64,000 nucleotides of DNA from Bacilli bacterium (GTDB taxonomy: Bacteria > Bacillota_I > Bacilli_A > RFN20 > CAG-826): contig JAXFTN010000131.1 in NCBI GenBank assembly GCA_034176765.1, forward strand, positions 942 through 64,941, given 5' to 3'. The translations under genes and the position numbers were made by a program. Shown in pieces: positions 6,094 to 59,454 of this stretch (positions are counted from its first letter, which is position 1; the number at the start of each line of letters is the position of its first letter). The notes beneath the pieces are model-generated. The model was not told the origin of the DNA. It saw nothing but the letters and a program-made list of their open reading frames with translations, and searched no databases.

Positions 6094-6211
6094 CAATTTC
6101 ACCTCAAGTATTTATAAATTATTTAACTTGAGGTTTTTTATTTTAAAAAATAAATTGTTATATTGCTTATAATATTTTGACTTGTTAAAATATTAAAAGG
6201 GAGTGATTAGA

Positions 6212-7486: not shown

Positions 7487-7487
7487 A

Positions 7488-8525: not shown

Positions 8526-8528
8526 ACT

Positions 8529-9386: not shown

Positions 9387-9388
9387 TT

Positions 9389-13057: not shown

Positions 13058-13058
13058 T

Positions 13059-13691
13059 ATGTTTGAAGAAGAAATTGTAAAACTTTCAAATCAAGAACAA
13101 AAACAATTTGCTCAAGTTGTAAACAATTTATTATCCCAATCATATATAGTTCGTGAATATTACGATAGCCGTGAAAAAATGATCAAAATGAGTAATGACT
13201 ATCGTTTCATTGAAAGATATTATGAAGTATTTGAAGAATATCTTAAATATTCAGGTTGGACATTGGATAAAGATACGGCAACTGGTGTTATCGCTATTCG
13301 TAATGATTTTGATCAAAATCGTTTAAAAGTTGATAGAGAAACTTCTTTGGTTTTATTTACATTAAGATTTATTTATGAAAATGAAAATTCAAAAAACAAT
13401 GCAGCTAATCTAGGTGTTGGAAAAAATGTTTACTTAACAACACCTGAATTAATGAAATTTATGGTTGAGTATGGAATAACAATGCAAGGCAAAAAATTAA
13501 CAGGTCGTGGTTTAGGCCGTTGTTTACGTTTTGCTAACCAACACAATATTATTTCTAAAGTTAGTGGTACATTTGATGAAGGTAATGTCACTTTCTATAT
13601 TTTACCTTCAATTGCATTTGCTGTTGATAGTCAAAAGATAGCTGCAATGAGTGATGCTTTAGAAAAGTTAAGAGCAATGGAGGGCGAGTAA
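13059..13691 (+). CDS. jetB: JetB-like protein (DUF4194; MksE-like)
   Basis: Length is 210 aa. It is coupled by 1-2 nt spacing to jetA and jetC. Position and size match JetB/MksE. Confidence 0.6.
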   Translation: MFEEEIVKLSNQEQKQFAQVVNNLLSQSYIVREYYDSREKMIKMSNDYRFIERYYEVFEEYLKYSGWTLDKDTATGVIAIRNDFDQNRLKVDRETSLVLFTLRFIYENENSKNNAANLGVGKNVYLTTPELMKFMVEYGITMQGKKLTGRGLGRCLRFANQHNIISKVSGTFDEGNVTFYILPSIAFAVDSQKIAAMSDALEKLRAMEGE

Positions 13692-13692
13692 T

Positions 13693-43527: not shown

Positions 43528-45003
43528 CTAGAATAAGAATCCTTGAACTGCAGAAATAATGTAATTTGAAAAAATACCAATTAATACTGCAGAAACAGTT
43601 AAAATAATCAAGACAGTAGACATCAATTTATTTTCTTTTACTTTTGAAAATTCTTGATTTTTATCTCCTGGGAAGAATGCTTTTATTGTAATAGGTAATA
43701 AGTAAAGGGCTGTAAAAACAGCTGAAGTTAATAAAACAATACAAGCGATAATACCAACTGCTGTTGATCCACTATTTAAAGCACCCATAGCTAGATACCA
43801 TTTTGAAGTGAATGGACCAGTAGGTGGAATACCAATTAATCCTAGTGAACATATTGTATAGCACCACATTGTGATTGGCATTTGTTTTCCAACACCTGTT
43901 AATTCATCAACATTATGTTTTTGTAAATTGTGGATCATAATACCAGCTACTAAGAATAAGCAAACTTTAATACAAGCATGAGAAGCAATGTGTATAAAAG
44001 AACCTGCTAGTGATTGTTCGTTTAATAAACTGATACCTAATAAAATATAAGATAATTGAGAAACAGAAGAGTAAGCTAAACGTTTCTTAAAATTATTTTG
44101 TAATAAAGCAAGACCAGAGCCTAATAAAATTGTGATTAAAATTAATGTAATCCAAGTATATTGCAACCATGTTCCTTTTATAAAGTCTGTACCTACTATA
44201 AAAAATAAAATACGAACGATAAATAAGACACCAGCTTTAGTAATGATACCAGAAAGAACGGCTGATGCAGGAGCTGGAGCAACAGGGTGAGCTGTTGGTA
44301 GCCATTCTTGTAATGGGAACATACCTGCTTTTGTACCAAAACCAATAAATGCAAGTAGTAATGAAACTAAAATCAATGTTTTGTGTGCGTTAGCTTCAGT
44401 TAAATCTAGTGATCCACCTAAAACAAATTCGCAACCATTTGTTGTATAAGCATATAAAACAAAGACAGCAAATAATCCTAAAAAGGCACCACCTATTGAA
44501 TAAATTAAATATTTAATAGCAGCTCTAATTGATTCTTTAGTTTTATCATAAAGAACTAGTGGCATTGAAAGAAGTGTTAGCATTTCAAATCCAAGATAAA
44601 GGGTTATTAAGTTACCTGAATAACATAATAATAAAAGTGTTGCTTCAGACATTAAGTAGAAAGAGAAGAATTTATTTGAGTTCTCATCGTGTTCAAAATA
44701 TCTAAAAGCATATAAGCTAACTAATAAGAATATAACTGAAATGATGATAGCAAAGAAATTTGAAACCCCATCATTTTTAAATAAAATCAACAAATTATCA
44801 GTTAATTTAAAAAGTTCTACTCTTTGTCCACTAAAAATAGTTAAAAGAATGACGCTTATTACTATTAAACTTGATAGTGAAGAAATCAAAATGTTAATTA
44901 ATTTTTTATTTTGTGTTTTTAAAAAGTGAACTACTATTCCTAATATTAATGGAACAAGTATAGAAATAAACATAAAAATAAACATATCTTCCCTCCTATG
45001 CAA
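43528..45003 (-). CDS. Mrp antiporter subunit D-like, paralog 2
   Basis: WLPTAHPVAPAPASAVLSGI signature. Length is 491 aa. Confidence 0.75.
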   Translation of the reverse strand: MHRREDMFIFMFISILVPLILGIVVHFLKTQNKKLINILISSLSSLIVISVILLTIFSGQRVELFKLTDNLLILFKNDGVSNFFAIIISVIFLLVSLYAFRYFEHDENSNKFFSFYLMSEATLLLLCYSGNLITLYLGFEMLTLLSMPLVLYDKTKESIRAAIKYLIYSIGGAFLGLFAVFVLYAYTTNGCEFVLGGSLDLTEANAHKTLILVSLLLAFIGFGTKAGMFPLQEWLPTAHPVAPAPASAVLSGIITKAGVLFIVRILFFIVGTDFIKGTWLQYTWITLILITILLGSGLALLQNNFKKRLAYSSVSQLSYILLGISLLNEQSLAGSFIHIASHACIKVCLFLVAGIMIHNLQKHNVDELTGVGKQMPITMWCYTICSLGLIGIPPTGPFTSKWYLAMGALNSGSTAVGIIACIVLLTSAVFTALYLLPITIKAFFPGDKNQEFSKVKENKLMSTVLIILTVSAVLIGIFSNYIISAVQGFLF

Positions 45004-46489
45004 ACATATCTAAACCTTTTTGTATTACTACAATAATATAAGGTAGAGAGCCAATAACTATATTAATTAATGAAAAACCAATAACACTCAATTTAAAAGC
45101 AAATGAGCTTTTTTCTTTAATGGTTTCATTAGTAGCAACTTCAAGAGGAGAGTAAATAGTAATAATTGTTCTTAAGAAATAAATTGTATTTAATAATGTA
45201 GAGATAACTAATGATGCAAGAGCAAGTGATACTTGTAAAGTTGATATTGTTGCGTCTAGAGCACCCATAATTAATAAACATTTAGTAGCAAATCCAGCAA
45301 AGAATGGGAAACCGACCATAGATAGAGAACCTATCGTATATCCAATTCCTGCGATAATATCTTTCTTTCCAGACCCCTTTAAAGATCTAAATCTTGCATC
45401 CCCATTCGATACGCTAATTAATCTATTACTAGAAACAAATAATAAAGGTTTAGTACATGCATGACATAAAATTTGTATTATTGCACCAACAATACCTGCA
45501 GGTCCTAAGCCAATACCCATATAGATATAACCAATTTGAGCTGCTGATGAAAAAGAAATCATACGATTTATTTTTCCTTGTCTTATAGCTGAAAGAGAAC
45601 CAAATATCATACCTAGAGCACCAACGATTAAATAAACACCAGTAAGTTTTAAAGAGTTAATAGTATCCCAACCGAATGTACGATAAATCATTTTAATTAG
45701 TAAAATAATGTAACCTTTTGAAATAACACCAGATACGATTGATGCAGAAGTTGTTGTAGATTCACCATATGCATCTGGCATCCAAAAGTAAAATGGGAAC
45801 ATACCACTTTTAATGCCTAATCCAACTGAAATTAATAAACATGAACAAATAATTGCTGGAGTATTTTTGTTATTAGTTACTAAAGTTGTTAATGCTTCTT
45901 TAATGTAACTCATAGATAAATAACCAGTTAAGTCATATAAGAAAATAATACCAAGTAAGAATAGACCAGAGCCGATCAAATTAAATATCATATATCTTAT
46001 TGCAGCTACTGTAGTATTGCCTTTTTCTTTAATCATAATTAGGCCAATACTTGCGAGTGTAGATATTTCTAAGAAGACATAGCCTGTAAAGACGTCGTTA
46101 GTATAAATTAATGCAATTAAAGCAACTAGTACTAAGTTTAATAAAACATACATAAAGTGTTCTTTATTTTCACTTATATCTTCTTTAATATCTTTTTGTC
46201 CTCCGAGTAATGATAATAAAATAATAAGAGGAAAAAATATTGCAAATATTGATTCTAGAACACCAAATCTAATTTCATTACAAAATGGAGCAGGGAAATG
46301 ACCCATTGGATATTCTATGCTTCCTTCTTTTAGGGTTAGCATTAGAACACATATTCCAAATGCAACAGAAATACTATCAACAATAATTGTAATAATTCGT
46401 GATGCTTTTCCTTTTAATATTGCACATAAAACTACAGCAACAAAAGCTAAAATGATTGTAAACAAGGGGAAATTTTTAAAGAATTCCAT
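44996..46489 (-). CDS. Mrp antiporter subunit D-like, paralog 1
   Basis: WMPDAYGESTTTSASIVSGV is a degenerate version of the same signature. Length is 497 aa. Confidence 0.72.
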   Translation of the reverse strand: MEFFKNFPLFTIILAFVAVVLCAILKGKASRIITIIVDSISVAFGICVLMLTLKEGSIEYPMGHFPAPFCNEIRFGVLESIFAIFFPLIILLSLLGGQKDIKEDISENKEHFMYVLLNLVLVALIALIYTNDVFTGYVFLEISTLASIGLIMIKEKGNTTVAAIRYMIFNLIGSGLFLLGIIFLYDLTGYLSMSYIKEALTTLVTNNKNTPAIICSCLLISVGLGIKSGMFPFYFWMPDAYGESTTTSASIVSGVISKGYIILLIKMIYRTFGWDTINSLKLTGVYLIVGALGMIFGSLSAIRQGKINRMISFSSAAQIGYIYMGIGLGPAGIVGAIIQILCHACTKPLLFVSSNRLISVSNGDARFRSLKGSGKKDIIAGIGYTIGSLSMVGFPFFAGFATKCLLIMGALDATISTLQVSLALASLVISTLLNTIYFLRTIITIYSPLEVATNETIKEKSSFAFKLSVIGFSLINIVIGSLPYIIVVIQKGLDMFA

Positions 46490-46491
46490 AT

Positions 46492-46872
46492 CTAGTCCTC
46501 CTTGTGTTTGTGTATTGCATGATACACTTCATCTAAATTAAGAGTGTGATATTTTGAATATAACCTTACTGTTAGTGCTAAAGATATAGCTGTAACAGAA
46601 ACAGAAACAACAATACCTGTTAAGACTAGACCAGCAGGAATAGGATTTACATAAGATGAAGGATCGGTACTACCATTATTTAAGATTGGTGGGACACGAT
46701 CACCTTGAATATATCCCATAGATGCAAGAAATAAGTATGTTCCTGTATCCATAATATTTAACCCAATAATTTTCTTTAATAAGTTACGATGGAATAAGAG
46801 TAGAGCAAACCCAATGCCAAATAATAAGATGGCAACTACTTCTACTAAATGATCAAGTAAAGCTTGTAGCAT
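46492..46872 (-). CDS. Mrp antiporter subunit C-like (NuoK-like)
   Basis: LLFGIGFALLLFHRNLLKKIIGLNIMDTGTYLFL motif. ATGA overlap with the upstream gene. Confidence 0.7.
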   Translation of the reverse strand: MLQALLDHLVEVVAILLFGIGFALLLFHRNLLKKIIGLNIMDTGTYLFLASMGYIQGDRVPPILNNGSTDPSSYVNPIPAGLVLTGIVVSVSVTAISLALTVRLYSKYHTLNLDEVYHAIHKHKED

Positions 46873-46873
46873 A

Positions 46874-47767
46874 TTAGATTTCTCCTTTCTTAAATAATGA
46901 ATAGAATCCAAACATTGTGCATGTAACAACTAATCCGACACAAACATTTAAAATAAAGATTATGCCTCCACTTAAGATAGCACCAGGTTCGCCTAATGGA
47001 ATTACTGAATGCATACCATTAGCACCTGTAAAGAATGAATATGTTTTACATCCACAATATGTTAATAAAGATAGTGAAGTAATAACTTTGAAAGATTTTT
47101 GCTTGAAGAATCTTTCCGAATTATTAAAGCCAAATGCAATTGAATAAAGAATTAATCCTGCACCCATGATAGCTCCGCCGGAGAAACCTCCTCCAGGAGA
47201 AATGGATCCATTTAATACTACATATGCACCGAATAATAAAATAATAGGAACAAGGATAGAACAAGTAATTTGTAAAATTGGATCTTGTACAATTTTAAAT
47301 TTTTCTTTTAATGTTGCATTGTCTTTAAAACCTTGTAATAAAATCATTACACAAGTAACAGCAGTAAAAAGAACAAAAGATTCACCAAGAGTATCAAATG
47401 CACGATAATCTAAAATCATACCTGTTACAAAGTTGGTTGCGCCTGTATCACCAATACCATCCTTAATATATTTATCAATTATTTCATTTAGAGTAGGATT
47501 ATTTAATTCATCTCCAAAGACTGGTAAGAATGTAACACAATATAATAAGGAACAAATAAATAATAATGATGCAACAATTGCTATAAAATAATAAATTCCA
47601 GATTCAAATTTATGAGATTTCTTTTTAATTGCAGCAGTTGCTTGTTTGTTAGGTTTTTTAGCTTTTATAGTATCATCATAATTAACAACTAAATCTTCAT
47701 CGTTTTCAATATTTGAAAGCAAATCTTGACTTTCACCTAAAAAGTTTTTATTTTTCATGAGATTCAC
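46874..47767 (-). CDS. Mrp antiporter subunit B-domain protein with hydrophilic N-terminal extension
   Basis: GMILDYRAFDTLGESFVLFTAV is the MnhB signature. Confidence 0.65.
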   Translation of the reverse strand: MNLMKNKNFLGESQDLLSNIENDEDLVVNYDDTIKAKKPNKQATAAIKKKSHKFESGIYYFIAIVASLLFICSLLYCVTFLPVFGDELNNPTLNEIIDKYIKDGIGDTGATNFVTGMILDYRAFDTLGESFVLFTAVTCVMILLQGFKDNATLKEKFKIVQDPILQITCSILVPIILLFGAYVVLNGSISPGGGFSGGAIMGAGLILYSIAFGFNNSERFFKQKSFKVITSLSLLTYCGCKTYSFFTGANGMHSVIPLGEPGAILSGGIIFILNVCVGLVVTCTMFGFYSLFKKGEI

Positions 47768-48080
47768 CTTCTTTTATTTCTACTTGAGATGATTCTTCAA
47801 GTACACTATTTTCATTGTGTTTATCATCGACTTTATTTAAGTTAGAATCAATTTGTTTAATCTTCTTTAAAGTTAAGAAAAATAAAACACTTGTTACACC
47901 TGCACCAACAGCAGCTTCCGTAATTGCTAAATCAGGTGCTTGTAATAAAACCCAAATAACAGACATGACTACTGAATATGAACTAAAGATTATAATAGAT
48001 GTTAATAAATTCTTACTTAATCCAGCAGCAATAGCACAGACAACTAAAAAAACTAATAAAATAATTTCAAATATTTCCAT
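47748..48080 (-). CDS. Small MnhB-N-terminal-like (DUF4040-type) membrane protein
   Basis: Three helices. Occupies the MbhD/E position of Mbh-type clusters. Confidence 0.5.
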   Translation of the reverse strand: MEIFEIILLVFLVVCAIAAGLSKNLLTSIIIFSSYSVVMSVIWVLLQAPDLAITEAAVGAGVTSVLFFLTLKKIKQIDSNLNKVDDKHNENSVLEESSQVEIKEGESHEK

Positions 48081-48442
48081 TAGTTGTCACCTTCTTCCTT
48101 ATCTTCTACTTTTTCACTAGAATCAACTTGCGTTTGATTAACTTCTTTTTTTACTTGATCGTCAGTTAAGACTTCAAGTTTAGAAATAAAGTGACTTGCT
48201 ACAGGACTTGTTAGCCATAAAAAGATAACAATAAAGAATAATTTTATAGATGTTGCATTAAATCCATTAGCAATAGCAATTCCTAAGATAATACAAAATA
48301 AACCCATCGTATCTAATAAAGCTGCTGAGTGCATTTTGTTTAAAACGAATTTAAATTTATAAATTCCAATAACTCCTATAATAAATAGGAAAAGGCCTAA
48401 AAGAATAAAGAAAGCAGAAAAACCAAAAGTTACCCAAGTCAT
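48080..48442 (-). CDS. Mrp antiporter subunit G-like
   Basis: VLNKMHSAALLDTMG matches the MnhG RxHAA region. Length is 120 aa. Confidence 0.7.
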   Translation of the reverse strand: MTWVTFGFSAFFILLGLFLFIIGVIGIYKFKFVLNKMHSAALLDTMGLFCIILGIAIANGFNATSIKLFFIVIFLWLTSPVASHFISKLEVLTDDQVKKEVNQTQVDSSEKVEDKEEGDN

Positions 48443-48795
48443 TATTTTTCATCCTCCTTTTCTTCTTTTTTATTATCTTCTTCAATTGTAGGAATAATAT
48501 TAGTTGCTTTATGTTCTTCGATATAGCGATTAATAAAGACATTACTTAAAACGACAACTGATAAGAAAGATATTAAAACATAAATAATACATACATCACT
48601 TAAGTATGATTGCTTTAAAAATACTGAAAGAATAGCAATAATTGAAGTAACAAAAGTACCAGTCATATTGATAGTAACAATACGATCAGTTACACGAGGG
48701 CCTATAATAGTTTTAATAAGAATAAATAATAGACCAATACCTAAAAGGCATAATGTTCCAATAATTAGATATTCAAAAGCTAGTTCTGGTGTCAT
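48442..48795 (-). CDS. Mrp antiporter subunit F-like
   Basis: Three helices, 117 aa, positioned between the E and G subunits. Confidence 0.6.
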   Translation of the reverse strand: MTPELAFEYLIIGTLCLLGIGLLFILIKTIIGPRVTDRIVTINMTGTFVTSIIAILSVFLKQSYLSDVCIIYVLISFLSVVVLSNVFINRYIEEHKATNIIPTIEEDNKKEEKEDEK

Positions 48796-49289
48796 TATTT
48801 TTTGCCCTCCATTCTTCTTAATAGTTTAACTAATGTACTATTTTCAATTCCTTCAAAGTATTCTTTTCTTAAACAATGAACAATAAAAACACCACCATTT
48901 TTCTTTGTTTTATCACAAGAAATAGTGATAGTTCCTGGAGTAAGAGTAATAGAATTTGCTAGTAATGAAATTAGTAATTCGTTTTCTAAATCAATGTGTA
49001 TTTTGATAATCTGTGGTTCAGGAGTTTGTTTTCTTTTTAATATTAAAGAGACAACTTTTAAATTTGAAACTATAACATTAATAAATAAAACAATTCCATA
49101 AGCAATAAATAAATGAATGTGCTTTATAAAAAAAATATCTGTTTTAAAGCTCCATTTTGTAAATTTAATCATAAACCAATATATTAATGCACTTAATAAA
49201 AGGCCAATGATAACAATTTGTAGAAATTTTGTATCAAATGCAAAATGAGCATTCAATAATAACCATATTAAAAAAATGATTATAAACAT
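48795..49289 (-). CDS. Mrp antiporter subunit E-like
   Basis: LANSITLTPGTITI is the MnhE signature. RBS AAGGTGGAG precedes the ATG at 49289. First gene of the minus-strand operon. Confidence 0.7.
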   Translation of the reverse strand: MFIIIFLIWLLLNAHFAFDTKFLQIVIIGLLLSALIYWFMIKFTKWSFKTDIFFIKHIHLFIAYGIVLFINVIVSNLKVVSLILKRKQTPEPQIIKIHIDLENELLISLLANSITLTPGTITISCDKTKKNGGVFIVHCLRKEYFEGIENSTLVKLLRRMEGKK

Positions 49290-49469
49290 TTCTCCACCTT
49301 CTTTCACCTTTAAAACTATACCACTATAAGATTTTTAAATCAATTATTACATAGTAATAATATAGTATTTATCATAAATATTTTTTTATTAATGAAATAT
49401 GTTTTTCTTAACAATAAAGTACAAAAAAAATAAAATTTGTTTTTTTTTATCAAAACTAGTCGTTATTAG

Positions 49470-49503: not shown

Positions 49504-50811
49504 ATGAGTTTATTTAGTTCTAGCATAGGTAGACATTTAAACGGCCATAAAGAATTATCAAAACATGCCGAAATAATTGATCTTCGTGCGAAAGCTGGAC
49601 AAAAAGTTTATTTCCCTACTATTTGTTCAAATAATACTCCACTTAATGTTTTAGTTAAACCTGGAGATAAAGTTAAAGCTGGACAAAAAATAGCAGAAAG
49701 AACTGATTTTTATGTTCCAATTTATGCATCTGTATCTGGCACTGTTTTAGATGAAGAAGTCCTATTTAGTACAAATGTCAATAAACCTATCAAACACATC
49801 GTTATTGAAAGCGATGGTACTCACAAACAAAATAGGAAACTAAAAACTGTTACTTTAGAAAGTACTCAAGAAGAAATTTTCAAGGCTATTAAAGAAGCAG
49901 GTTTAGTTGGTCTAGGGGGTGCTGGGTTCCCTACTTATGTAAAATATAATAACCCACAAAATATCCACACATTACTTGTTAACGGAGTAGAATGTGAACC
50001 ATTCTTAACAACTGACTATGTTCAAATGTCAAGAGAAGTTGAATATTTAATGAGTGGTTGTGAATTATTAATGAAAGCAAGTGGAGCTGAAAAAGCTATC
50101 ATTGCTATTAAAGTTCATAAAGAAGATGTTAAAAATGCGGTTAATAGTAAATTAGCAGAACATCCTAATATTAAATTAGTTGAAGTTCCTGATAAATACC
50201 CAATGGGTTGGGAAAGAACTTTAATTAGACAAATATTTAAGAAGACTTATAACAAATTACCTTCTGAAGTTGGTATTGTTATAAATAACGGTCAAACAGT
50301 TATAGAACTTGCAAAAGTATTATTAGAAGGTCATCCTATGACTGAAAGAATGGTAACTGTTTCAGGTGACGCAATTAAAGAACCACATAATGTTTTAATT
50401 AATATTGGTACTCAAGCTAAAGAATTAATTGAAGCATGTGGTGGTATCACAGAAGAAGACTGTAATTTAATTCCTGGTGGTCCAATGTGTTCAAAGGCTG
50501 TTAATAATGATGTATTCCCATTAAATATGCAAATGGGTGCACTTACTATATTAAAAGTAAGAACATTTGTCGAAGAACCATGCTTAAGATGTGGTGCTTG
50601 TACAGGTCATTGTCCAGCAGGTCTTCAACCAGTTGAAATTAGAAGTGCTTTAAAAGCAAAAGATTACGATAGATTATTAAAACTTGATGTCTTATCTTGT
50701 GTCGAATGTGGTATGTGTTCATATACATGTCCTTCTCGTATTGAACTTACAGATGCTGTTAAGAACGCAAAACCAGTTGTCAAATTCAAGATGGCACAAG
50801 CAAAGAAATAA
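49504..50811 (+). CDS. rnfC: Rnf complex subunit C (NADH-binding, 2x[4Fe-4S])
   Basis: GLGGAGFPT NADH-binding loop. Ferredoxin motifs CLRCGACTGHCP and CVECGMCSYTCP are present. Confidence 0.9.
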   Translation: MSLFSSSIGRHLNGHKELSKHAEIIDLRAKAGQKVYFPTICSNNTPLNVLVKPGDKVKAGQKIAERTDFYVPIYASVSGTVLDEEVLFSTNVNKPIKHIVIESDGTHKQNRKLKTVTLESTQEEIFKAIKEAGLVGLGGAGFPTYVKYNNPQNIHTLLVNGVECEPFLTTDYVQMSREVEYLMSGCELLMKASGAEKAIIAIKVHKEDVKNAVNSKLAEHPNIKLVEVPDKYPMGWERTLIRQIFKKTYNKLPSEVGIVINNGQTVIELAKVLLEGHPMTERMVTVSGDAIKEPHNVLINIGTQAKELIEACGGITEEDCNLIPGGPMCSKAVNNDVFPLNMQMGALTILKVRTFVEEPCLRCGACTGHCPAGLQPVEIRSALKAKDYDRLLKLDVLSCVECGMCSYTCPSRIELTDAVKNAKPVVKFKMAQAKK

Positions 50812-50823
50812 GGAGGTAAGAAA

Positions 50824-52434
50824 ATGGCTTTTAAGACAAATTCAGCTCCTTATCAAAGAGCTAAAAAATCAACTCTACAAATTATGATAGAGTTAGCAAT
50901 TGCACTTGCAATTGTTTGGATTGCTGCGATTGTTACAACATTTATTAAATTAGGTTCTCCATATGGTGTTAAATCTATTTTGTTAATGGTTGTATCATTA
51001 GCTACTACAGCAGTTTGTGATGTTTTAACAACATTATTTAGAAATTTTAGAGTTCTAAAAGGTAAAGAACTTGGAAAAAAGATACTTTATGATTTAGTTC
51101 ATAATTATTCTTGGATTACTGCAATGATTCTTACTTTAATTTGCCCTGTCTGGACAAGTTATTATGCAATCATTTGTGGTTCAATCTTTGCTACTTTAGT
51201 TGTTAAAAATTTATTTGGTGGTTTTGGATCAAACATTTTCAACCCAGCTGCTTTTGGTAGAATTTTTATTCAACTATGTTTCTCATTAGCAGTTCCTGCA
51301 GGAATTACTAATGGTGTTGTTTCTGGAGCTACATTAACAGGTGTTGTTAATTCAAGTCAACAATGGCTTGGTGCTTTAGAAATCGATGGCTTTGGAATTA
51401 AAGAAATCTTATTAGGTACTTATTTTGGTACAATGGGTGAAACATTTACTATTCTTCTTTTAGTTTTAGGTGTTGTCCTTGCTATTAGAGGAGATATTAA
51501 CTGGAGAGCTCCTGTATTCTATGTAGGTACTGTCGCTGTTACTTCAATAATAATTGCATTAGTATTAGGATTTGAAAATCCTTTATTATATGTTGTATAT
51601 CATCTAGGTTTAGGTGGATTAATGTTTGGTGCTGTATTTATGATTACAGACCCTGTCACAACTCCTACTGCACCTGTTGGTAATTGCTTTGTTGGAGTAT
51701 TTGCAGCATTAATGACTGTTTTATTAAGAATTGCTACAAATGGTCCTGAAGGTGTTGTTTACTCAATTGCACTTGTTAACTTAATTACTCCAGCTATTGA
51801 TAGAATCTGTGTTGGTAAAACATCTGCTCATAAAGGAGTTAAATATGGTGTAACATTTGGTACTCTAGCAGCTTCTATCTTATTGTGTGTAGGTTGTTCA
51901 TGGGCTTTAAACGGTGGTCGTGAAGTCAATGAAATTAATGGAATTTCACGTAAAGAATATGATGAATTAAAATCATATGTAAATTTTGAATTCATGGATG
52001 AAAAAGGTTATGAATTCATGAAATATGAAAAAACAATTGGCTCATATAGTAGTCTAACTTCTGTTGGCAATTGTTCATCTGCATATAGTATCATTGATGA
52101 AAATAATAATGTAGTTGCTGCTGTTTACTGTGTTCAAGTTAGTGGTATTTCAATTGATAATGGATATAATGTTTCTGAGAAAACTGGTGTTGCTTACGTT
52201 GCTATTTCAACAACAACTGATCAAATTATTGATATGTCACTAGTTAAAGTTCCATATGTTGGAGCATATTTAGATAAAGTTAATGGTGGAGTTAATGATT
52301 TTGATTATGCAAATAATAATATTTTAGATAAAGAACCAAATCAGATTATTACAGGTGCTACTTATTCAGCAATAGGTATTAAAAATCTTGCACAAGCTGC
52401 CGTTGATGTTTATCAAGGCGAATATAAAGCATAG
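50824..52434 (+). CDS. rnfD: Rnf complex subunit D fused to a C-terminal FMN-binding (RnfG/NqrC-like) domain
   Basis: NqrB/RnfD core with FMITDPVTTPTAPVG. A ~170-aa extension contains the flavinylation-type motif IITGATYSAIG. Confidence 0.8.
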   Translation: MAFKTNSAPYQRAKKSTLQIMIELAIALAIVWIAAIVTTFIKLGSPYGVKSILLMVVSLATTAVCDVLTTLFRNFRVLKGKELGKKILYDLVHNYSWITAMILTLICPVWTSYYAIICGSIFATLVVKNLFGGFGSNIFNPAAFGRIFIQLCFSLAVPAGITNGVVSGATLTGVVNSSQQWLGALEIDGFGIKEILLGTYFGTMGETFTILLLVLGVVLAIRGDINWRAPVFYVGTVAVTSIIIALVLGFENPLLYVVYHLGLGGLMFGAVFMITDPVTTPTAPVGNCFVGVFAALMTVLLRIATNGPEGVVYSIALVNLITPAIDRICVGKTSAHKGVKYGVTFGTLAASILLCVGCSWALNGGREVNEINGISRKEYDELKSYVNFEFMDEKGYEFMKYEKTIGSYSSLTSVGNCSSAYSIIDENNNVVAAVYCVQVSGISIDNGYNVSEKTGVAYVAISTTTDQIIDMSLVKVPYVGAYLDKVNGGVNDFDYANNNILDKEPNQIITGATYSAIGIKNLAQAAVDVYQGEYKA

Positions 52435-52446
52435 GAGGTAAGTACG

Positions 52447-53007
52447 ATGAATAAATTAGTTAAATTGCCATTATTCCTAGGCGCAGTCGGATGTATTTGT
52501 GGTGGCGTTCTTGCTGCTGTAAATTTTGTTACAGAACCAGTTATTGCTGCTAATGAAGAAAAGAAAGCAAATGCTGCTTTCTATGAACATTTTTCTAATT
52601 TTAGTAAGAAAAATGTTGTAACAGTAAAAGATGAGCTTGCTTCTGCAGGTATTACTCAAAAATTTTATTGTTTTGATGAATCATTAACATTTATTGGTAC
52701 TGTATATGAATGTTCAGTCGTTGGATATGCTGGTAAAAGTACACCAATCAAATTTACAGTTTCATTTGCTAATGGAGCTCCTAATCACTATGTTGAATTA
52801 AGTAACGGCGAATCTGCTGAAGGCAAAAAATTTATGGATTGGCTTAAAGAAGATGTCAATGGAAATCGTTTATCAAATCTAGAAGAAGGTAAAACAGTTT
52901 CAGGTTCATCTATTTCATATAAAGCAGTTGATGGTGCAGTAAAGGCATGTTCAGCTGACTACCTTGCGGAACTTGAACATGTTCCAACTTTTATAGAAAA
53001 TGAATAG
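52447..53007 (+). CDS. rnfG: Rnf complex subunit G (FMN-binding)
   Basis: N-terminal membrane anchor. FMN_bind-like motif KTVSGSSISYKAVDGAV near the C-terminus. Confidence 0.75.
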   Translation: MNKLVKLPLFLGAVGCICGGVLAAVNFVTEPVIAANEEKKANAAFYEHFSNFSKKNVVTVKDELASAGITQKFYCFDESLTFIGTVYECSVVGYAGKSTPIKFTVSFANGAPNHYVELSNGESAEGKKFMDWLKEDVNGNRLSNLEEGKTVSGSSISYKAVDGAVKACSADYLAELEHVPTFIENE

Positions 53008-53021
53008 GAGGGTAAATAGTT

Positions 53022-53681
53022 ATGAAAAAATTACAAACATTTTTAAATGGTTTATTATTTGAAAATCCTACTCTTGTTATTTTCTTAGGTATGTGCCCTG
53101 CTTTAGGAACAACAAATACTGTTGAAAATGCTACATATATGTCATTATGTGTATTATTTGTTTTACTTCTTTCAAATATTATTATTTCATTGATTAGAAA
53201 AATCGTTCCAAATGAAGTAAGAATTCCTGTTTACATTATTATCATTGCAACTCTTGTTACAATTGTTGATATGTTATTCCATGCATATTTACCAGATAAA
53301 GTTTATTCTTCATTAGGTTCATTTATATCATTGATTGTTGTTAACTGTATTATTTTAGGAAGAGCAGAATCATTTGCTTCTAAAAATAAAATCGGTGATT
53401 CAATTATCGATGCATTAGGTTACAGTGCTGGTTTTGCTGGAGCTATTATTATTGTAGCTTTCTTCAGAGAATTATTAGGCACAGGATGTTTATCATGGGG
53501 TAGCAGTTCTGTTGATCTATTCTCTGATTATAAAATTTCTTTATTTGCATCTAATGCTGGGGCATTTATTGCATTGGGTATCGTAGTAGGTATTTATTCA
53601 GCAATTATGAGTGCTATAAAAAATCATAAGGCAAAAAAAGCTGCATTAGCTAAAGAAGCTAATGTTGAAGCTACAAAGTAA
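53022..53681 (+). CDS. rnfE: Rnf complex subunit E
   Basis: ENPTLVIFLGMCPALGTTNTVENA matches the RnfE/NqrD signature. Confidence 0.9.
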   Translation: MKKLQTFLNGLLFENPTLVIFLGMCPALGTTNTVENATYMSLCVLFVLLLSNIIISLIRKIVPNEVRIPVYIIIIATLVTIVDMLFHAYLPDKVYSSLGSFISLIVVNCIILGRAESFASKNKIGDSIIDALGYSAGFAGAIIIVAFFRELLGTGCLSWGSSSVDLFSDYKISLFASNAGAFIALGIVVGIYSAIMSAIKNHKAKKAALAKEANVEATK

Positions 53682-53696
53682 GGAGGAATAAAAGAA

Positions 53697-54275
53697 ATGG
53701 ATTTATTTGCTATCGCATTTGCTGCTTTACTTGGCAGTAATATTATTCTTTCAAGATTTTTAGGTATTTGTCCTTTCTTAGGAGTTTCTAAAAAAACTTC
53801 TAGTGCTGTTGGCATGGGTTTAGCATTAATTGCTGTTGTTACTTTATCAGCTTTATTATGTTTTGCACTTGATAAACTACTTGTTTTATTAGGAATGGCA
53901 TCTTATCTAGAATTAGTTGTTTTCATTCTTGTAATTGCTTCATTCGTTCAATTATTAGAATTTTTCTTAAAGAGATTTGTTCCAAGTTTATATAAATCAC
54001 TAGGTGTTTATCTTCCTTTAATTACAACAAACTGTGTTGTTTTACAAGTATGTTTAGATCTTGTTTCAAGAGAATATAACTTATTACAAACTTTAGTTTA
54101 CGCAGTTAGTGTATCAGCAGGTTATATGCTAATCATTGTTCTTTTCTCTTTAATTAGAACTCGTTTAGATAATCAACCTAATATGCCTAAAGCATTTAAA
54201 GGAAATGCAATTGCCTTAATTACAGCTGGATTAATGGCTATGGCTTTCATTGCATTTAGTGGTTTTAGCTTCTAA
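53697..54275 (+). CDS. rnfA: Rnf complex subunit A
   Basis: ILSRFLGICPFLGVSKK matches the RnfA/NqrE signature. Confidence 0.9.
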   Translation: MDLFAIAFAALLGSNIILSRFLGICPFLGVSKKTSSAVGMGLALIAVVTLSALLCFALDKLLVLLGMASYLELVVFILVIASFVQLLEFFLKRFVPSLYKSLGVYLPLITTNCVVLQVCLDLVSREYNLLQTLVYAVSVSAGYMLIIVLFSLIRTRLDNQPNMPKAFKGNAIALITAGLMAMAFIAFSGFSF

Positions 54276-54493
54276 TGATATTCACTCAAGAAACTGGTAA
54301 TATATGGGTTCAAATAGGTATTTTACTTGTATGTATTGCATTATTTGTAGGTACTTATTTATTGAATAGACATACAAAAAAGCCAGATGGATGTGAAAAT
54401 GTTAGTGAGCATTGTACAGGTTGTACAATCTCTTCCTGTTCTCATCATCCAAATAATTCTAAAGAAGAAAAAGGAGAAGAAAAAAATGATTAA
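54275..54493 (+). CDS. Small single-pass membrane protein with Cys-rich tail (CxnCxxCxxxxCxHH)
   Basis: Translationally coupled between rnfA (ATG overlaps its stop) and rnfB (8-nt overlap). One helix, then CENVSEHCTGCTISSCSHH. Confidence 0.4.
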   Translation: MIFTQETGNIWVQIGILLVCIALFVGTYLLNRHTKKPDGCENVSEHCTGCTISSCSHHPNNSKEEKGEEKND

Positions 54494-54800
54494 AATTTTA
54501 TTAGCTATGGCTGTTTCTTTAGGAATAGCAGCTATATTAGGTTTTGGACTTGCACTTGCTGATAAATTCCTTAAAGTTGAAGAAGATCCACGTATTGAAA
54601 AAGTTACTTCAATGCTACCTGGTGCAAACTGTGGTGGTTGTGGCTTCCCTGGATGTTCTGGTTATGCATGTGCATTAGTTGAAAAGAAAGTTGATTCTTT
54701 AGCAGCTTGTAAAGTATCAAAACCAGAAGCAAAAGAACAAATTAAAGCTTATTTAAAAGAGACACCAGGACCTGATGGAACTACTCTTGATTTAAAATAA
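54486..54800 (+). CDS. rnfB: Truncated RnfB: N-terminal membrane anchor and Cys-cluster module only, no polyferredoxin domains
   Basis: RBS AAAGGAGAAG is present. LPGANCGGCGFPGCSGYACAL matches the RnfB N-terminal Fe-S module. The ORF stops after 104 aa with no CxxCxxCxxxCP ferredoxin motifs. An immediate terminator follows. Confidence 0.65.
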   Translation: MIKILLAMAVSLGIAAILGFGLALADKFLKVEEDPRIEKVTSMLPGANCGGCGFPGCSGYACALVEKKVDSLAACKVSKPEAKEQIKAYLKETPGPDGTTLDLK

Positions 54801-54938: not shown

Positions 54939-55901
54939 ATGAAAAAATCAAAATTATTATTAATTCCTGCTGTTCTTGCTCTTGGATCATTAGCATCATG
55001 TGGCGGAACAAAAGAAGTTTCTCTTGGATTAGGCTATGTAGCTTCATTTGCTGATTCACATGGAAAAATGCAATTAGAAGTTAGTGTAGCTTCAGTTGGT
55101 TTTGATAAAGATGGTAAAGTTCTTGATGCAAGATTTGACACAATTCAAGTCACACATGCTGCTGCTAAAAACGCTGATGGATCAATTACTTTCAGCACAC
55201 CATCTGCAACAAACGATAATGGCGTTAAATCTAAACTAGAATTAGGTAAAGATTACAACATGAAACCTGTTAGTGCTTTAGGTCTTGAAGTCGATACTCA
55301 AATTGAAACTTTTGCTGATTTCTGTGTTGGTAAAACAGTAGAAGAAATTAAAGCAGCTGAATCTGTTGAAGGTGTTTCAATTGTTGTTTCAAGTTATGTT
55401 AGCGCATTAGAAAAAGCATATGCTTCAAAAAGAGAAGCTGTTTCTTACAAAGGCGAATTAAAAGCTGGCGTTGGTATGGCTGGTACACTTAATGCAAAGA
55501 AAAATGAAACTTCAATTACAGTTAATGCTTCATTAGTAGCTGATTCTAAAGTTGTTGCATCTTATACAGACTGTGTTGTTCACCAATTCAGCGGTGCTGT
55601 TGAAGGTGACAAAGTGGTTGTTTCATCTAAAGCAGACCAAAAATATGTTGTAAATGGAAAAATCACATCTAAATATGATTTACACGAAGCTTATGGTATG
55701 GGCCAAACTGGTGAAAAAGTTATCTTAGAATGGGACGTTCAAGCAGAAAACTTTGATGCTGCAGTTATTGGTAAAACAGCAGATGAAATTAAAGCATTAA
55801 AAGATATCGAAGGTTGTACAATGGTAATTACAGATATGATTGGTGCTACTGTTGAAGCTGTTACATACTCAGGTATGGAACACGTTGGTCCACAAGCTTA
55901 A
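54939..55901 (+). CDS. Surface lipoprotein with two internal repeats; candidate flavinylated (FMN-binding-like) ApbE substrate
   Basis: RBS GGAGG is present. Lipobox LASCGG. The two halves are related (VEEIKAAESVEGVSIVVSS versus ADEIKALKDIEGCTMVITDMIGATVEAV). The second half carries a D-x-x-x-G-A-T motif. Confidence 0.45.
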   Translation: MKKSKLLLIPAVLALGSLASCGGTKEVSLGLGYVASFADSHGKMQLEVSVASVGFDKDGKVLDARFDTIQVTHAAAKNADGSITFSTPSATNDNGVKSKLELGKDYNMKPVSALGLEVDTQIETFADFCVGKTVEEIKAAESVEGVSIVVSSYVSALEKAYASKREAVSYKGELKAGVGMAGTLNAKKNETSITVNASLVADSKVVASYTDCVVHQFSGAVEGDKVVVSSKADQKYVVNGKITSKYDLHEAYGMGQTGEKVILEWDVQAENFDAAVIGKTADEIKALKDIEGCTMVITDMIGATVEAVTYSGMEHVGPQA

Positions 55902-55949: not shown

Positions 55950-55995
55950 GTTTATTTTAAATAATGAATAGGGTAATATATAGATGGGTGAAATT

Positions 55996-57174
55996 ATGAA
56001 AAAGGCGTCAGTTTATTTATTACTAATTTGTTTATTATCATCATGCAGTTTGAAATATAATTATGAAGTTAATCCATATGATGTTATGGGTGTTATTGAT
56101 GATAATGGTGAATATATACCAGCTTTGAATTCATTTGTAAAATTGCAGATGTATAATGAAAATGAATTAAAAGAAGTAAGATCTTCTTTTTCGAGTACAA
56201 TTCAAAAAGTACATATTATTTCAGATAGTTATCATTCTTATTTTGGAAATAATAATGTAAAAACAATTAATGAAAACTATGGTAAAGAAGCTATAAATGT
56301 TGACCCTTTACTTATTGATTTAGTTAATAAAGGTATTGAATTAACAAAATTAACAAAAGGCATTTTTAATATTACTATGGGACAGACTATTTCTTTATGG
56401 AGTGATGCTTTTAATAATATCGATAATTCGTTAACAGCTGATGATCCTAATCATGAAGAAATAGAAAAAAGTTTAACTTCTATTATAAATTATGAAGAGA
56501 TTGATAATTATATTAAAATAGACCAAGAAAATTCAACTATTAAAATAGAAACTAAAGAAGATGCCTTAATGCCTGTTTTATTAAATTTTGGAGGCATTTC
56601 AAAAGGATTTGCTTTAGATCAAGTAAATGATTTGTTTTTAAATAATCAACCAGGAATAATTTCGGCTGGTTCTTCTTCAATATCATTAAAAGGTACGTTT
56701 CCTTTAAGTAATCGGAAATATTATTTAATTAATATTCGAGAACCTTCTTTTTATAAGTCTTCTCAACAAGAAGTGTTTTTACAAATAGCTCTAGAAAAAT
56801 ACAATAACATTTCAAATTCGGGTGATTATGAAAAGTTTTTCTTTACCAAAGATACAAATACTTTAAGATCTCATATTATAAATGCTTCGACTGGATTTAG
56901 TGATAATTATCATCGTTCTGCGATTGTGTTTAGTGAAACATATTCATATGTATTAGACGTTTTATCAACAACACTTATGAACCTTGAAACTATAGACGAA
57001 ATTGAAGAAATGGTAAAAAGATTTGAAGATTTTTATAAGACTTCAATTGCATATTGTATTATTGATGATTTTGAAAATGGATTTAAATTATCTGTTAATG
57101 AAAAGTTTAATGAATGTATTGTTGAAAATAAAATATCCTCGATAATCAAGGATATTCAAGTAATTAAGAATTAA
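55996..57174 (+). CDS. apbE: FAD:protein FMN transferase (ApbE family), lipoprotein, copy 1
   Basis: Lipobox LLSSCS. ApbE motifs are present: FGGISKGFALDQV, ISAGSSS, SHIINASTG and LDVLSTT. Confidence 0.7.
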   Translation: MKKASVYLLLICLLSSCSLKYNYEVNPYDVMGVIDDNGEYIPALNSFVKLQMYNENELKEVRSSFSSTIQKVHIISDSYHSYFGNNNVKTINENYGKEAINVDPLLIDLVNKGIELTKLTKGIFNITMGQTISLWSDAFNNIDNSLTADDPNHEEIEKSLTSIINYEEIDNYIKIDQENSTIKIETKEDALMPVLLNFGGISKGFALDQVNDLFLNNQPGIISAGSSSISLKGTFPLSNRKYYLINIREPSFYKSSQQEVFLQIALEKYNNISNSGDYEKFFFTKDTNTLRSHIINASTGFSDNYHRSAIVFSETYSYVLDVLSTTLMNLETIDEIEEMVKRFEDFYKTSIAYCIIDDFENGFKLSVNEKFNECIVENKISSIIKDIQVIKN

Positions 57175-57703
57175 ATAAGTGTTCAATGTGATGGTCAACT
57201 TTTAATAAAACAAGAGAAGTTAATAAAGCAGTAAGTAGACCTGTTATAATTCCTGAAATCATTAAAATAGGATAATACATAACTAGACCAAAAGTATTAT
57301 ATATAATTGATACAGCAATCATTTGACCAACACCATGGAAAACAGCACTTACACATGAAAGTCCATAAATTGAAAATTTCTTTAGGTAATATAATATAAC
57401 AACGATTAATGTTGATAAAAACCACCCACTAAGACTTAAAATGAAAGCTACAGAAAATAGACCTGTTCTTAAAAGACCAACAATTAAAACTCTTAAGAAG
57501 CCAATAGAAATATATTCTTTTGGTGAATAATAATATAATATAACTAATCCAATTGTATTTGCTAATCCTAGTTTTACGCCAGGAATAGCTATTGGAAGAG
57601 GTATCATTGATTCAACTAGATTTAAGATAATTCCTAATGCTAGGAATAAACTTAATCTAGTTATTTTTTTGATTGTTTTACTAGATTTAGAAGTGTTTTC
57701 CAT
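57164..57703 (-). CDS. Gx-transporter-family membrane protein (heptaprenyl-diphosphate-synthase-component-I-like)
   Basis: IPLPIAIPGVKLGLANTIGLV matches the family's PGxKLGLAN signature. About 5-6 helices. Its start overlaps the upstream NusG-II gene's stop. Confidence 0.55.
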   Translation of the reverse strand: MENTSKSSKTIKKITRLSLFLALGIILNLVESMIPLPIAIPGVKLGLANTIGLVILYYYSPKEYISIGFLRVLIVGLLRTGLFSVAFILSLSGWFLSTLIVVILYYLKKFSIYGLSCVSAVFHGVGQMIAVSIIYNTFGLVMYYPILMISGIITGLLTALLTSLVLLKVDHHIEHLFNS

Positions 57704-58148
57704 AATTTATTACACCTCCATATCCAAGTGTTTCATTACCTTCGCTATCATCTGTTGAATTGATTACTACACGTACATCGTTTGGAATACATACAATTGG
57801 TAAATTAGCGATATTAACCCATCCTTGTTTTTCACATGTTAAGTTAGGACAAGTAACATCGTGAACACGTATTCCTTTATCTTTATTAATATCAATATAA
57901 AAATCTCCAAGTAAATCAGGATATTTTTCTTTAGTTAAAACAATTGTATAAGTTTCATCAAGGTTATCAATATCAGTTCGATATTCTTTTAATTCTTCAC
58001 TTTTATAATAAATACAAACATATCTATTGCCAGAAAAGGCGCTATTATAAATAAAAATACCCACCATTAAAGAAATTGATGCTAGTGCACTAACAGCAAT
58101 TATGATAATATCAATAATTTTGAACTTTAATGAAAAATTTCTATTCAT
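57687..58148 (-). CDS. NusG-domain-II-containing small membrane-anchored protein
   Basis: N-terminal helix plus a ~110-aa beta-rich domain. Conserved partner of Gx-transporter/ApbE genes. ATG overlaps the upstream apbE stop. Confidence 0.45.
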   Translation of the reverse strand: MNRNFSLKFKIIDIIIIAVSALASISLMVGIFIYNSAFSGNRYVCIYYKSEELKEYRTDIDNLDETYTIVLTKEKYPDLLGDFYIDINKDKGIRVHDVTCPNLTCEKQGWVNIANLPIVCIPNDVRVVINSTDDSEGNETLGYGGVINYGKHF

Positions 58149-59454
58149 AATACACCTTACAATTTGAAGCTTTAATTTCTACATCTTTTTTTAAAGAACT
58201 ATCAATATAAATGTTTAGCTTATTATCTTTGTCTGTATCCATAATAATTAGGGAAAGATCTTTATCAGGATATTTAGCTAATAAATTATTTCTGTATGTG
58301 AAACATTGTTCTAGAGGCAAATTAACAAACATTGTTGAAAGAGCATCAAGTTGAGCATTAGAAAATGTCTTAGAAATAATAGTTACACTTGAATGTTCTT
58401 GACTACAATCACCAGTATAAGGATTAATAATGTGATGACGATATAATTTATTATTATCATCAGTATTAATATAATATGAATTATGATTATAATTACCAGA
58501 TGTTGAAATACCGTAATCATAATTTACACTTAAAGAAAAAGCTATATCTCTAATAATAGAGTTTCCTGTGCGAGGATCAGCAAAATTAAATAATTGATAT
58601 CCTTTTTCAAAAAAAGTAGGCGCAGTTAAAGAAGCTAATGAACTAGAACCAGCATTAATAACTCCATCAGTATAATTTAATGATAAGAATTTTTCTTTAA
58701 TGTAATCAACTGCTAACCCTTTTGCAATACCACCTGTAGTTATAACGGGACGATATTTAGAAGTGACTTTATTTCTTTCTAGTATGGAACCATTATATTC
58801 TTTATTATCAATAGCATTAAATGTAATTTCTTTTTTTTCATCATTAAAAGTAAACAATTCTTTAACTTCATCCATAGTTGGTGTAGCATTTGCGTATTTT
58901 AACATTTCAAGATTTTGTTCTTGACTATAGTAAGGGTCATAAAGATGAACATCATTACCTTCATCTAAGACATTGTAAAAAATGTCATCCCAAAAAGAAT
59001 TTAATTTACCAACAAAGAAATTAAAATAACCATTAGTTTCCAGTGTCATATCATATCCAACTTTTAGTAAAGAATATACTTTATCATCACATTTAATTGG
59101 AACATTACTACCATATGAATCGTTAATTACTTTAATCGAGGTAATAATGTTGCCATCTTCATCTTTATAGTTATAGTGTCTATCAAATAATTTATGTAAA
59201 GAATTGATTTGATCTAAAAAGATACTTTTAACTTTTTCATCAAAATTATCTTCATAAGTTTTCTTTTCGTTTTTAAAGTATTTAAAAGTCATTACCGTAT
59301 TAAATGGGACTACAGGTATATTAGTAGATGTTAAAACTGAAGCTGTACTATTAGATACAACTAACCATTCTCCTTTATTAATGACTTTATCTGCGCATGA
59401 AATTAGCGAAGAGGAGCAAAGTAAAATTGATAAATATTTGAATTTGTTTTTCAT
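58141..59454 (-). CDS. apbE: FAD:protein FMN transferase (ApbE family), lipoprotein, copy 2
   Basis: Lipobox LISCAD. ApbE motifs are present: TGGIAKGLAVDYI, INAGSSS, HHIINPYTGD and LDALSTMF. Confidence 0.72.
   Translation of the reverse strand: MKNKFKYLSILLCSSSLISCADKVINKGEWLVVSNSTASVLTSTNIPVVPFNTVMTFKYFKNEKKTYEDNFDEKVKSIFLDQINSLHKLFDRHYNYKDEDGNIITSIKVINDSYGSNVPIKCDDKVYSLLKVGYDMTLETNGYFNFFVGKLNSFWDDIFYNVLDEGNDVHLYDPYYSQEQNLEMLKYANATPTMDEVKELFTFNDEKKEITFNAIDNKEYNGSILERNKVTSKYRPVITTGGIAKGLAVDYIKEKFLSLNYTDGVINAGSSSLASLTAPTFFEKGYQLFNFADPRTGNSIIRDIAFSLSVNYDYGISTSGNYNHNSYYINTDDNNKLYRHHIINPYTGDCSQEHSSVTIISKTFSNAQLDALSTMFVNLPLEQCFTYRNNLLAKYPDKDLSLIIMDTDKDNKLNIYIDSSLKKDVEIKASNCKVYYE

Follow-up and report, generated by a model that had tools for sequence, protein, structure and literature searches.

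A Long RnfD in an rnf Operon of Uncultured Bacilli

What has been appended to an RnfD subunit that runs some 200 residues past its characterized counterparts, and what could the appended part do in an Rnf complex that also has an ordinary RnfG? The question is raised by the rnfD gene of an rnf operon in a 64,000-nucleotide stretch of DNA from a Bacilli bacterium (assembly GCA_034176765.1, contig JAXFTN010000131.1, positions 942 to 64,941 of the forward strand), which is called the window here. All positions are those of the window, and its features lie on the plus strand unless the minus strand is named. The gene, termed rnfD-ext, is an intact open reading frame (ORF; 50824-52434) that encodes a protein of 536 residues (RnfD-ext). 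An RnfD with a C-terminal RnfG-like extension is confirmed as a real feature of this locus, and the reading of that extension in the first-pass annotation, as a fused FMN_bind domain, is supported. Taken as a whole, the explanation that we consider probable is that this RnfD carries an eleventh transmembrane (TM) helix (TM11) and, outside the membrane, an RnfG/NqrC-type flavodomain that is flavinylated at T513 and may act as a side port of the Rnf flavin chain.

The core of the protein (residues 1–331; 50824..51816) has ten TM helices and is defined by PF03116 and by Foldseek. PF03116 (NQR2_RnfD_RnfE) covers residues 5–331 with 207.8 bits (E = 3.2e-61), against a Pfam gathering score of 27.7. 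The NCBIfam rnfD model (TIGR01946) matches the same span with 137.6 bits, which is below its curated cutoff of 207 and therefore marks a divergent RnfD subfamily; close homologues from metagenome-assembled genomes (MAGs) are nonetheless named ‘subunit D’ by NCBI. With a full-length AlphaFold model (predicted local distance difference test score, pLDDT, 73), the best Foldseek matches are the solved RnfD chains 7zc6_D, 9eri_D, and 8ahx_D (E = 1e-10 to 3e-11; target TM-score, or template-modeling score, 0.70), and these matches are limited to the core. Against 7zc6_D alone, E is 2.6e-11 at a target TM-score of 0.70, which identifies the ten-helix RnfD fold. Because the three solved chains have 304, 318, and 349 residues, RnfD-ext is ~190–230 residues longer than the characterized RnfDs. 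The first-pass annotation of this DNA had put the 536-residue protein ~200 residues above canonical RnfD, which agrees with the 205-residue extension past residue 331, and both sequence strings that it quoted, TDPVTTPTAPVG and NQIITGATYSAIG, occur in the protein.

The canonical flavinylation site of the core, S167-G168-A169-T170 (51322..51333), was located in an alignment of 25 homologues, in which G168 and T170 are invariant. In solved RnfD, the Thr that bears covalent flavin mononucleotide (FMN) lies in the linker that joins the two five-helix halves and is the counterpart of T170 (PMC9588780).

Anatomy and Topology of the Extension

The extension begins with a basic cytoplasmic loop (residues 332–336, KTSAH; 51817..51831), delimited by conservation, which runs directly into K337 and K340. 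Among the basic residues ahead of TM11 (K332, H336, K337, K340), K340 is invariant and K332 is nearly so. TM11 itself spans residues 337–363 (51832..51912), as indicated by hydropathy (maximum at residues 343–361), by an AlphaFold helix at H337–363, and by conservation, the helix being kept in all 25 homologues. It is followed by a predicted RnfG/NqrC-like FMN_bind ectodomain of 173 residues (residues 364–536; 51913..52431), assigned from predicted structure and family profile matches. The juxtamembrane segment at the start of this domain, N363-G364-G365-x-E367...N372-G373, is invariant or nearly invariant in the homologues. Mean pairwise identity among the 25 proteins falls from 73% in the core to 51% in TM11 and to 39% in the ectodomain. 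The addition had earlier been described as a soluble extension; this holds for the domain, but an additional TM helix, which that description did not mention, comes first.

Solved RnfD has ten TM helices, with ~20 N-terminal and ~10 C-terminal residues in the cytoplasm (PMC9588780), and ten RnfD helices are also reported in PMC12174285. As the C-terminus of RnfD is cytoplasmic after ten helices, the ectodomain comes to lie outside with one helix more. Between it and the extracellular core site T170 there are six helices, an even number, and the basic residues ahead of TM11 are those expected from the positive-inside rule. A stand-alone homologue of the domain, P0122, is a lipoprotein (see section Associated Lipoproteins) and supports the location independently. 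That the ectodomain is extracytoplasmic, and reachable by the flavin transferase ApbE, is a well-constrained inference from the count of ten plus one helices, the basic loop, and P0122; the topology check, including the parity with T170, thereby sustains the location that had been proposed for the extension.

The extension is accordingly read as a complete RnfG/NqrC-type ectodomain on a TM anchor, and not as a bare FMN_bind module of ~80 residues. In effect, rnfD-ext joins an rnfG paralogue to rnfD in one reading frame, and the ordinary rnfG is still present downstream.

Relationship of the Ectodomain to FMN_bind Proteins

The evidence that carries the assignment of the ectodomain is structural. 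An AlphaFold model of residues 360–536, built from the 25-sequence alignment, has a pLDDT of 91.9 and a predicted template-modeling score (pTM) of 0.87, and in it five strands, as a central antiparallel sheet, are flanked by N-terminal helices and by a long C-terminal helix. This is the RnfG/NqrC fold; the same description has been given for RnfG in the structure from C. tetanomorphum (PMC9588780). RnfG, NqrC, or FMN_bind structures account for nine of the ten top structural matches of the model. The highest score is that of RnfG 7zc6_G (11.0, with 143 residues aligned), followed by RnfG 8ahx_G (8.7), NqrC (8.3, 7.8, and 7.4), the putative T. maritima RnfG 3dcz (6.9), isolated FMN_bind domains (6.7 and 5.8), and 3o6u (5.3). 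Entries 3LWX, 3DCZ, and 3O6U belong to PF04205 (PMC4348036).

Family profiles point the same way. At E ≤ 1, 17 of the 25 family members match FMN_bind (PF04205), with 8.7e-7 as the best value, and every other family is matched by one member at most; the homologue P0012 carries a precomputed PF04205+PF03116 annotation. In an hhalign comparison with the clade’s own RnfG, the ectodomain aligns colinearly over 109 columns, with TGATYS placed over SGSSIS, at E = 0.005 and with low probability.

Several results weigh against the assignment. The window copy scores 15.3–15.8 bits on PF04205 (E = 0.02–0.03), and the gathering score is 22; the matched part is the C-terminal half of the profile, flavinylation motif included. 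A profile of the family, run against the sequences of the Protein Data Bank (PDB), gives colinear NqrC matches at an E of 0.3 only, and Foldseek of the ectodomain against the PDB is non-significant (E ≥ 0.15), though NqrC is on top. The FMN_bind domain claimed in the first-pass annotation, and the profile search suggested for it, therefore came out with two faces: most relatives match, and the window copy stays under the Pfam threshold (15–16 versus 22 bits).

The ectodomain is also poorly reached by sequence searches. A phmmer search of PDB sequences with the ectodomain of the best-scoring homologue returned nothing relevant, and a word-index search with the extension alone found a single fragment. 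The ectodomain family is small: when HMMER was run exhaustively against 1.84 billion cluster representatives, no more than 10 of them belonged to it. The family appears to be limited to one lineage of uncultured low-GC Bacilli (the GC content of the window is 28%). With the predicted structure taken as settling the weak sequence evidence, the domain is very probably an RnfG/NqrC-type FMN_bind ectodomain.

Predicted Second Flavinylation Site

The predicted flavinylation site of the extension, T510-G511-A512-T513 (52351..52362), is indicated jointly by motif, model, and alignment, and FMN is predicted on T513. This residue is residue 154 of the ectodomain model and the first residue of the C-terminal helix (H154–174); in RnfG, the FMN-bearing Thr likewise follows a loop and stands ahead of the C-terminal helix (PMC9588780). 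Column 513 holds Thr in 19–21 and Ser in 4–6 of the homologues, so that Thr or Ser is present in 25 of 25 in both alignments, and of the few positions that hardly vary in the ectodomain, four are G511, A512, S515, and G518. Among all open segments of at least 150 residues in the six frames of the window (19,635 residues), the motif [ST]GA[ST]x[ST] occurs twice only, both times in RnfD-ext, as SGATLT at residues 167–172 and at the extension site; the extension motif is therefore unlikely to be due to chance. The [ST]GAT[ST]-type motif noted in the first pass thus corresponds to a TGAT at residues 510–513 that is backed by the relatives.

Two features of the site count against flavinylation. The consensus Asp at position −6 (D-x-x-[ST]-G-A-[ST]) is absent, Q507 standing in its place, and among the homologues N replaces G at −2 in two and V replaces A at −1 in several. 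In the same organism, however, Asp at −6 is also missing from the RnfG site and from the core site of RnfD; because all three predicted sites share this property, its absence at T513 does not discriminate. A D-to-A change in the ApbE motif has been reported to have minor effects only (PMC12052999). The SGSS motif of RnfG, together with the three sites without Asp, suggests cognate ApbEs with a relaxed or shifted recognition motif. On the motif, its conservation, and its place in the model, T513 is likely to carry covalent FMN, and a third covalent flavin is thereby probably added to the complex.

Possible Roles of the Tethered Flavodomain

In the proposed mechanism, T513 would be flavinylated by one of the two lipoprotein ApbEs encoded in the cluster, for which flavin adenine dinucleotide (FAD) would be exported by the EetB homologue (see section The rnf Operon and Its Neighborhood). 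Three covalent FMNs would then stand outside the membrane, on RnfD-T170, RnfD-T513, and RnfG-S155. TM X helps to form the pocket of FMN-RnfD in the outer leaflet (PMC9588780). As TM11 starts ~7 residues after TM10, and TM10 lines this pocket, the flavodomain would be tethered next to FMN-RnfD, where it could exchange electrons with FMN-RnfD, with FMN-RnfG, or with both. Tentatively, and by analogy, the flavodomain may be a side port that connects flavoprotein lipoproteins outside the cytoplasm, or soluble acceptors, with the Rnf flavin chain. A second outlet of this kind has been proposed for multi-flavinylated RnfG (PMC8238504). The side port is favored here because of the lipoprotein P0122 and an apbE-linked lipoprotein with two repeats; it is weakened in that neither a terminal reductase nor an acceptor can be recognized in the cluster.

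It is rather doubtful that the second flavodomain serves instead as an internal relay. In such an arrangement, the fused flavodomain would be docked on RnfD and the free RnfG would stay near RnfA/E, with electrons passing from 2Fe-2S(AE) to FMN-RnfG, then to FMN-T513 and FMN-T170, and never leaving the complex. A gap of ~35 Å, associated with a large movement of RnfG/NqrC (PMC12174285), would thereby be crossed by two flavins in series. The anchoring of the subunits speaks for this path: in solved Rnf, the TM helix of RnfG lies far from RnfD, in a bundle with TM helices of RnfA, RnfE, and RnfB, and with the new domain anchored at TM10 of RnfD there would be two different anchor points. The invariant juxtamembrane segment also suggests a domain that is docked in place on RnfD and not one on a loose tether. 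Furthermore, a separate RnfG is encoded in every one of the six rnf loci compared (the window and, at 51–85% RnfD identity, the five loci L001–L004 and L008, one of these five from a pig-gut metagenome). Canonical Rnf, however, functions without a second domain, and a relay leaves unexplained both the two-domain lipoprotein P0122 of L004 and the conserved apbE-associated lipoprotein.

A flavin-free ectodomain, in which an RnfG-derived fold only stabilizes or shields the outer face of RnfD, is improbable. It would fit the sub-threshold FMN_bind score of the window copy, the missing consensus Asp, and the departures from GA in some homologues (NAT, GVT, GVS), but Thr or Ser has been kept at position 513 throughout despite the low mean identity of the ectodomain, with G511, A512, S515, and G518 nearly invariant around it. 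Moreover, the cluster has two apbE genes and a gene for an FAD exporter, and the canonical sites of the organism are equally atypical.

The 120 best database homologues, which derive from ENA, Logan, and NCBI assemblies and many independent samples, are all 533–555 residues long and are encoded by an uninterrupted ORF (99–100% coverage, 50–97% identity); those with a name are given as ‘MAG: Bacilli/Bacillales bacterium ... subunit D.’ Because these homologues are full-length and come from many samples, the fusion is no artifact of assembly or frameshift. That two separate genes, rnfD and an rnfG-like one, were joined by a frameshift, an assembly error, or a wrongly called stop has a negligible chance of being correct, as nothing was found for it apart from the neighboring positions of canonical rnfD and rnfG, where a lost stop codon could in principle yield such an ORF, and the junction (basic loop plus TM11) is conserved.

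The rnf Operon and Its Neighborhood

The operon encodes all six Rnf subunits in canonical order, with intergenic gaps of 12–15 nucleotides or overlaps. It begins with rnfC (49504..50811), which matches TIGR01945 with 346 bits against a cutoff of 246. Directly after rnfD-ext comes the separate rnfG (52447-53007) that the first pass had reported. Its product of 186 residues has the site S152-G153-S154-S155 and matches FMN_bind at a sub-threshold 17.4 bits (E = 0.007) and the NCBIfam rnfG model (TIGR01947) at E = 6.4e-7, in the N-terminal half only. The motif is SGSS rather than SGAT, and reads [STA]GS[ST][IV][ST] in four orthologues. As RnfG of the window has one site only, it is not of the type in which this subunit has at least two FMN_bind domains; here, RnfD has the additional one.

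The genes rnfE (53022-53681; PF02508, E = 2e-56; best NCBIfam match RsxE/rnfE) and rnfA (53697-54275; PF02508, E = 3.5e-51; best NCBIfam match rnfA) follow. Between rnfA and rnfB lies an ORF (54275-54493) for a membrane protein of 72 residues with a Cys-rich tail (CENVSEHCTGCTISSCSHH), which is found in all relatives at 57–75 residues and has no family match, in NCBIfam either. The listed rnfB ORF of 137 residues (54387-54800) probably starts at M34 (nucleotide 54486), giving a short rnfB (54486..54800) of ~104 residues that matches the FeS family PF04060 at E = 3.7e-9. This RnfB consists of an N-terminal TM helix and one FeS domain and has no ferredoxin repeats; its orthologues have 100–104 residues.

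Downstream, two genes encode ApbE flavin transferases that are lipoproteins, one at 55984..57174 (PF02424, E = 1.6e-35; lipobox ...LLSSC) and the other on the minus strand at 58141..59454 (PF02424, E = 3.9e-25; lipobox ...SLISC). Between them, also on the minus strand, are an eetB homologue (57164..57703; PF07456, E = 9.5e-37) and a gene for a NusG_II-domain protein (57687-58148); an NCBIfam search gave no matches for either product. The two apbE genes are paralogous, and their pairing around the eetB homologue and the NusG_II gene is conserved in the clusters of relatives. EetB of Listeria is an FAD exporter that resembles the S component of energy-coupling factor transporters (ECF-S) and supplies extracytoplasmic ApbE, and its homologues colocalize with rnf (PMC9973259); by analogy, the homologue here may be an ECF-S-like FAD exporter that supplies the extracytoplasmic ApbEs. 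One possibility is that the two ApbEs serve different motifs, namely GAT/GST and the G-C-T/S-V-T of the two-repeat lipoprotein described below.

In all six loci, the order rnfC, rnfD-ext, rnfG, rnfE, rnfA, small ORF, rnfB is kept, as are the two apbE genes, the NusG_II gene, the eetB homologue, and the two-repeat lipoprotein gene. On the other side of the operon, and divergent from rnfC, is a complete operon for a multisubunit cation:proton antiporter of the Mrp/Mnh type (43528-49307, minus strand, possibly extending to 40019), with genes for MnhE, F, G, MbhD, MnhB, a NuoK-like subunit, and at least two NuoL/M-like subunits. It adjoins rnf in the closest relative, L001, and does not in L002–L004 or L008. 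Elsewhere in the window, a Wadjet-type defense locus (11630-17073, plus strand, probably extending to 18329) encodes JetA (PF18982, E = 2.5e-94), a JetB-like DUF4194 protein, and a JetC/SMC-like ATPase of 1126 residues, with an ORF of 383 residues after them. A second Rnf/Nqr cluster, suspected at 6203-10695 from gene sizes, was rejected, the genes there being those for RlmN, RsgA, Rpe, and similar proteins.

Associated Lipoproteins

P0122, which was introduced above, is a stand-alone lipoprotein (...LILSC) of 372 residues encoded at L004:8001-9119. The RnfD-extension domain occurs twice in tandem in this protein, and both copies have AGAT[IM]S at their end. The P0122 gene stands between rnfB and apbE in the rnf cluster of L004, which also has a fused RnfD (548 residues). 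If the motifs are read as sites, the L004 cluster would have up to five predicted extracytoplasmic flavinylation sites.

The second protein is a candidate extracytoplasmic redox partner encoded in the window at 54939..55901 (ORF called from 54888), with the lipobox LASC. It has ~320 residues and two halves that represent an internal duplication (E = 4e-10), and neither Pfam nor NCBIfam gives a match for it. All six rnf loci have the gene, with orthologues at L001:11063-12064 and, on the minus strand, at L002:14434-15432, L003:15662-16654, and L004:12790-13869; others are found at L005:8001-9032 and L006:8001-9011. More than 130 homologues occur in Bacilli and Clostridia, all of them ‘hypothetical.’ The gene lies beside apbE in unrelated Firmicutes, and in Alkalicella caledoniensis it is directly upstream of apbE with no rnf nearby. 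At another locus, the lipoprotein takes the position of PplA in a cluster that resembles those for extracellular electron transfer (EET), in the order Pyr_redox_2, polyprenyl synthase, UbiA, NusG_II, PF07456, two-repeat lipoprotein, ApbE.

Each repeat ends in [DE]-L-x-[SA]-[SG]-[VC]-T-[IMV], and the Thr of repeat 2 (T311 counted from 54888) is invariant. T311 aligns weakly with the Thr of SGAT in the FMN_bind protein 2KZX (E = 0.1) and with T513 (E = 0.11), and one homologue, P0233, has a genuine FMN_bind domain fused in front. These sequence features indicate that the two-repeat lipoprotein may be an unrecognized class of ApbE substrate with a non-canonical motif. As a homologue of the ectodomain, the lipoprotein (337 residues) was tried and set aside (hhalign E = 0.22 and 0.11), and it is not counted as a third FMN_bind protein.

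Comparison with Known Systems

Canonical Rnf complexes (C. tetanomorphum, 7ZC6; A. woodii, 9ERI; A. vinelandii, 8AHX) have the same subunits, gene order, RnfD core, and flavinylation Thr, and a separate RnfG. They differ in that solved RnfDs stop in the cytoplasm ~10 residues after TM10, whereas RnfD here continues into an eleventh TM helix and an RnfG-like flavodomain. The minimal RnfB of the window, with the FdI domain only, also departs from canonical Rnf and has a known parallel in T. maritima (PMC9588780). Relative to RnfG and NqrC subunits, the domain is fused, its anchor helix lies on TM10 of RnfD and is not bundled with RnfA/E/B, and its sequence is too divergent for phmmer, the window copy falling below the Pfam threshold.

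The closest idea in the literature is that of multi-flavinylated RnfG, in which extra ApbE-flavinylated FMN_bind domains are present on Rnf and a second extracytosolic path has been proposed (Meheust et al., 2021, PMC8238504). There, the domains are tandem repeats in RnfG, whereas here a single-domain RnfG is combined with an extra domain on RnfD. NQR/RNF-like two-subunit systems likewise have C-terminal fusions to an RnfD/NqrB core, with an FMN_bind partner. In those systems, however, the fused domain is cytosolic and of the NqrF type (PF00175) and the core Thr is lost; here, the domain is FMN_bind-like and, as predicted, extracytoplasmic, T170 is kept, the full Rnf set is present, and PF00175 has no match on the extension at E ≤ 10.

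EET of the Listeria type offers a further comparison. PplA and Cad have extracytoplasmic NqrC-like flavodomains that are served by a lipoprotein ApbE (FmnB) and by FAD supplied through EetB, and P0122 is similarly a two-domain lipoprotein. The electron source here would be Rnf and not quinone. From the Listeria-type set, ApbE (twice) and PF07456 are present, the putative flavin motif of the window lipoprotein is non-canonical, and among the genes from 43.5 to 62.2 kb there is no Ndh2, DmkA, or DmkB. The pairing of cad with apbE has been reported only in genomes without rnf (PMC7074142). No description of an RnfD with an extracytoplasmic RnfG-like domain in addition to a separate RnfG was found in the open-access literature that was searched, although automatic architecture tables may list the combination PF03116+PF04205.

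Implications for Rnf in Gut Bacilli

The feature is hidden by annotation, as Pfam misses the domain in most members and the NCBI label is plain ‘subunit D.’ In Rnf and Nqr, a single flavodomain (RnfG/NqrC) is considered to carry electrons over ~35 Å on the outer membrane face by swinging. A natural Rnf with a second RnfG-like flavodomain permanently tethered to RnfD is a test case for how this swing is driven and coupled to ion pumping, in which the added domain would either shorten the gap, as a relay, or tap the chain, as an outlet.

A more far-reaching reading, which we regard as speculative and on present evidence unlikely, is that Rnf is ‘open’ in these quinone- and cytochrome-poor gut Bacilli, the RnfD flavodomain passing electrons to a series of ApbE-flavinylated lipoproteins in a purely flavin-based, Rnf-driven form of EET that is free of quinone. 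The partners in such a chain could be the P0122-type two-domain protein, the two-repeat lipoprotein with its non-canonical S-V-T/G-C-T motif, or both. If the flavodomain does act as an outlet, there would be a direct tie between ferredoxin-driven ion pumping and redox chemistry outside the cell in gut Bacilli that are abundant, uncultured, and without classical respiratory chains.

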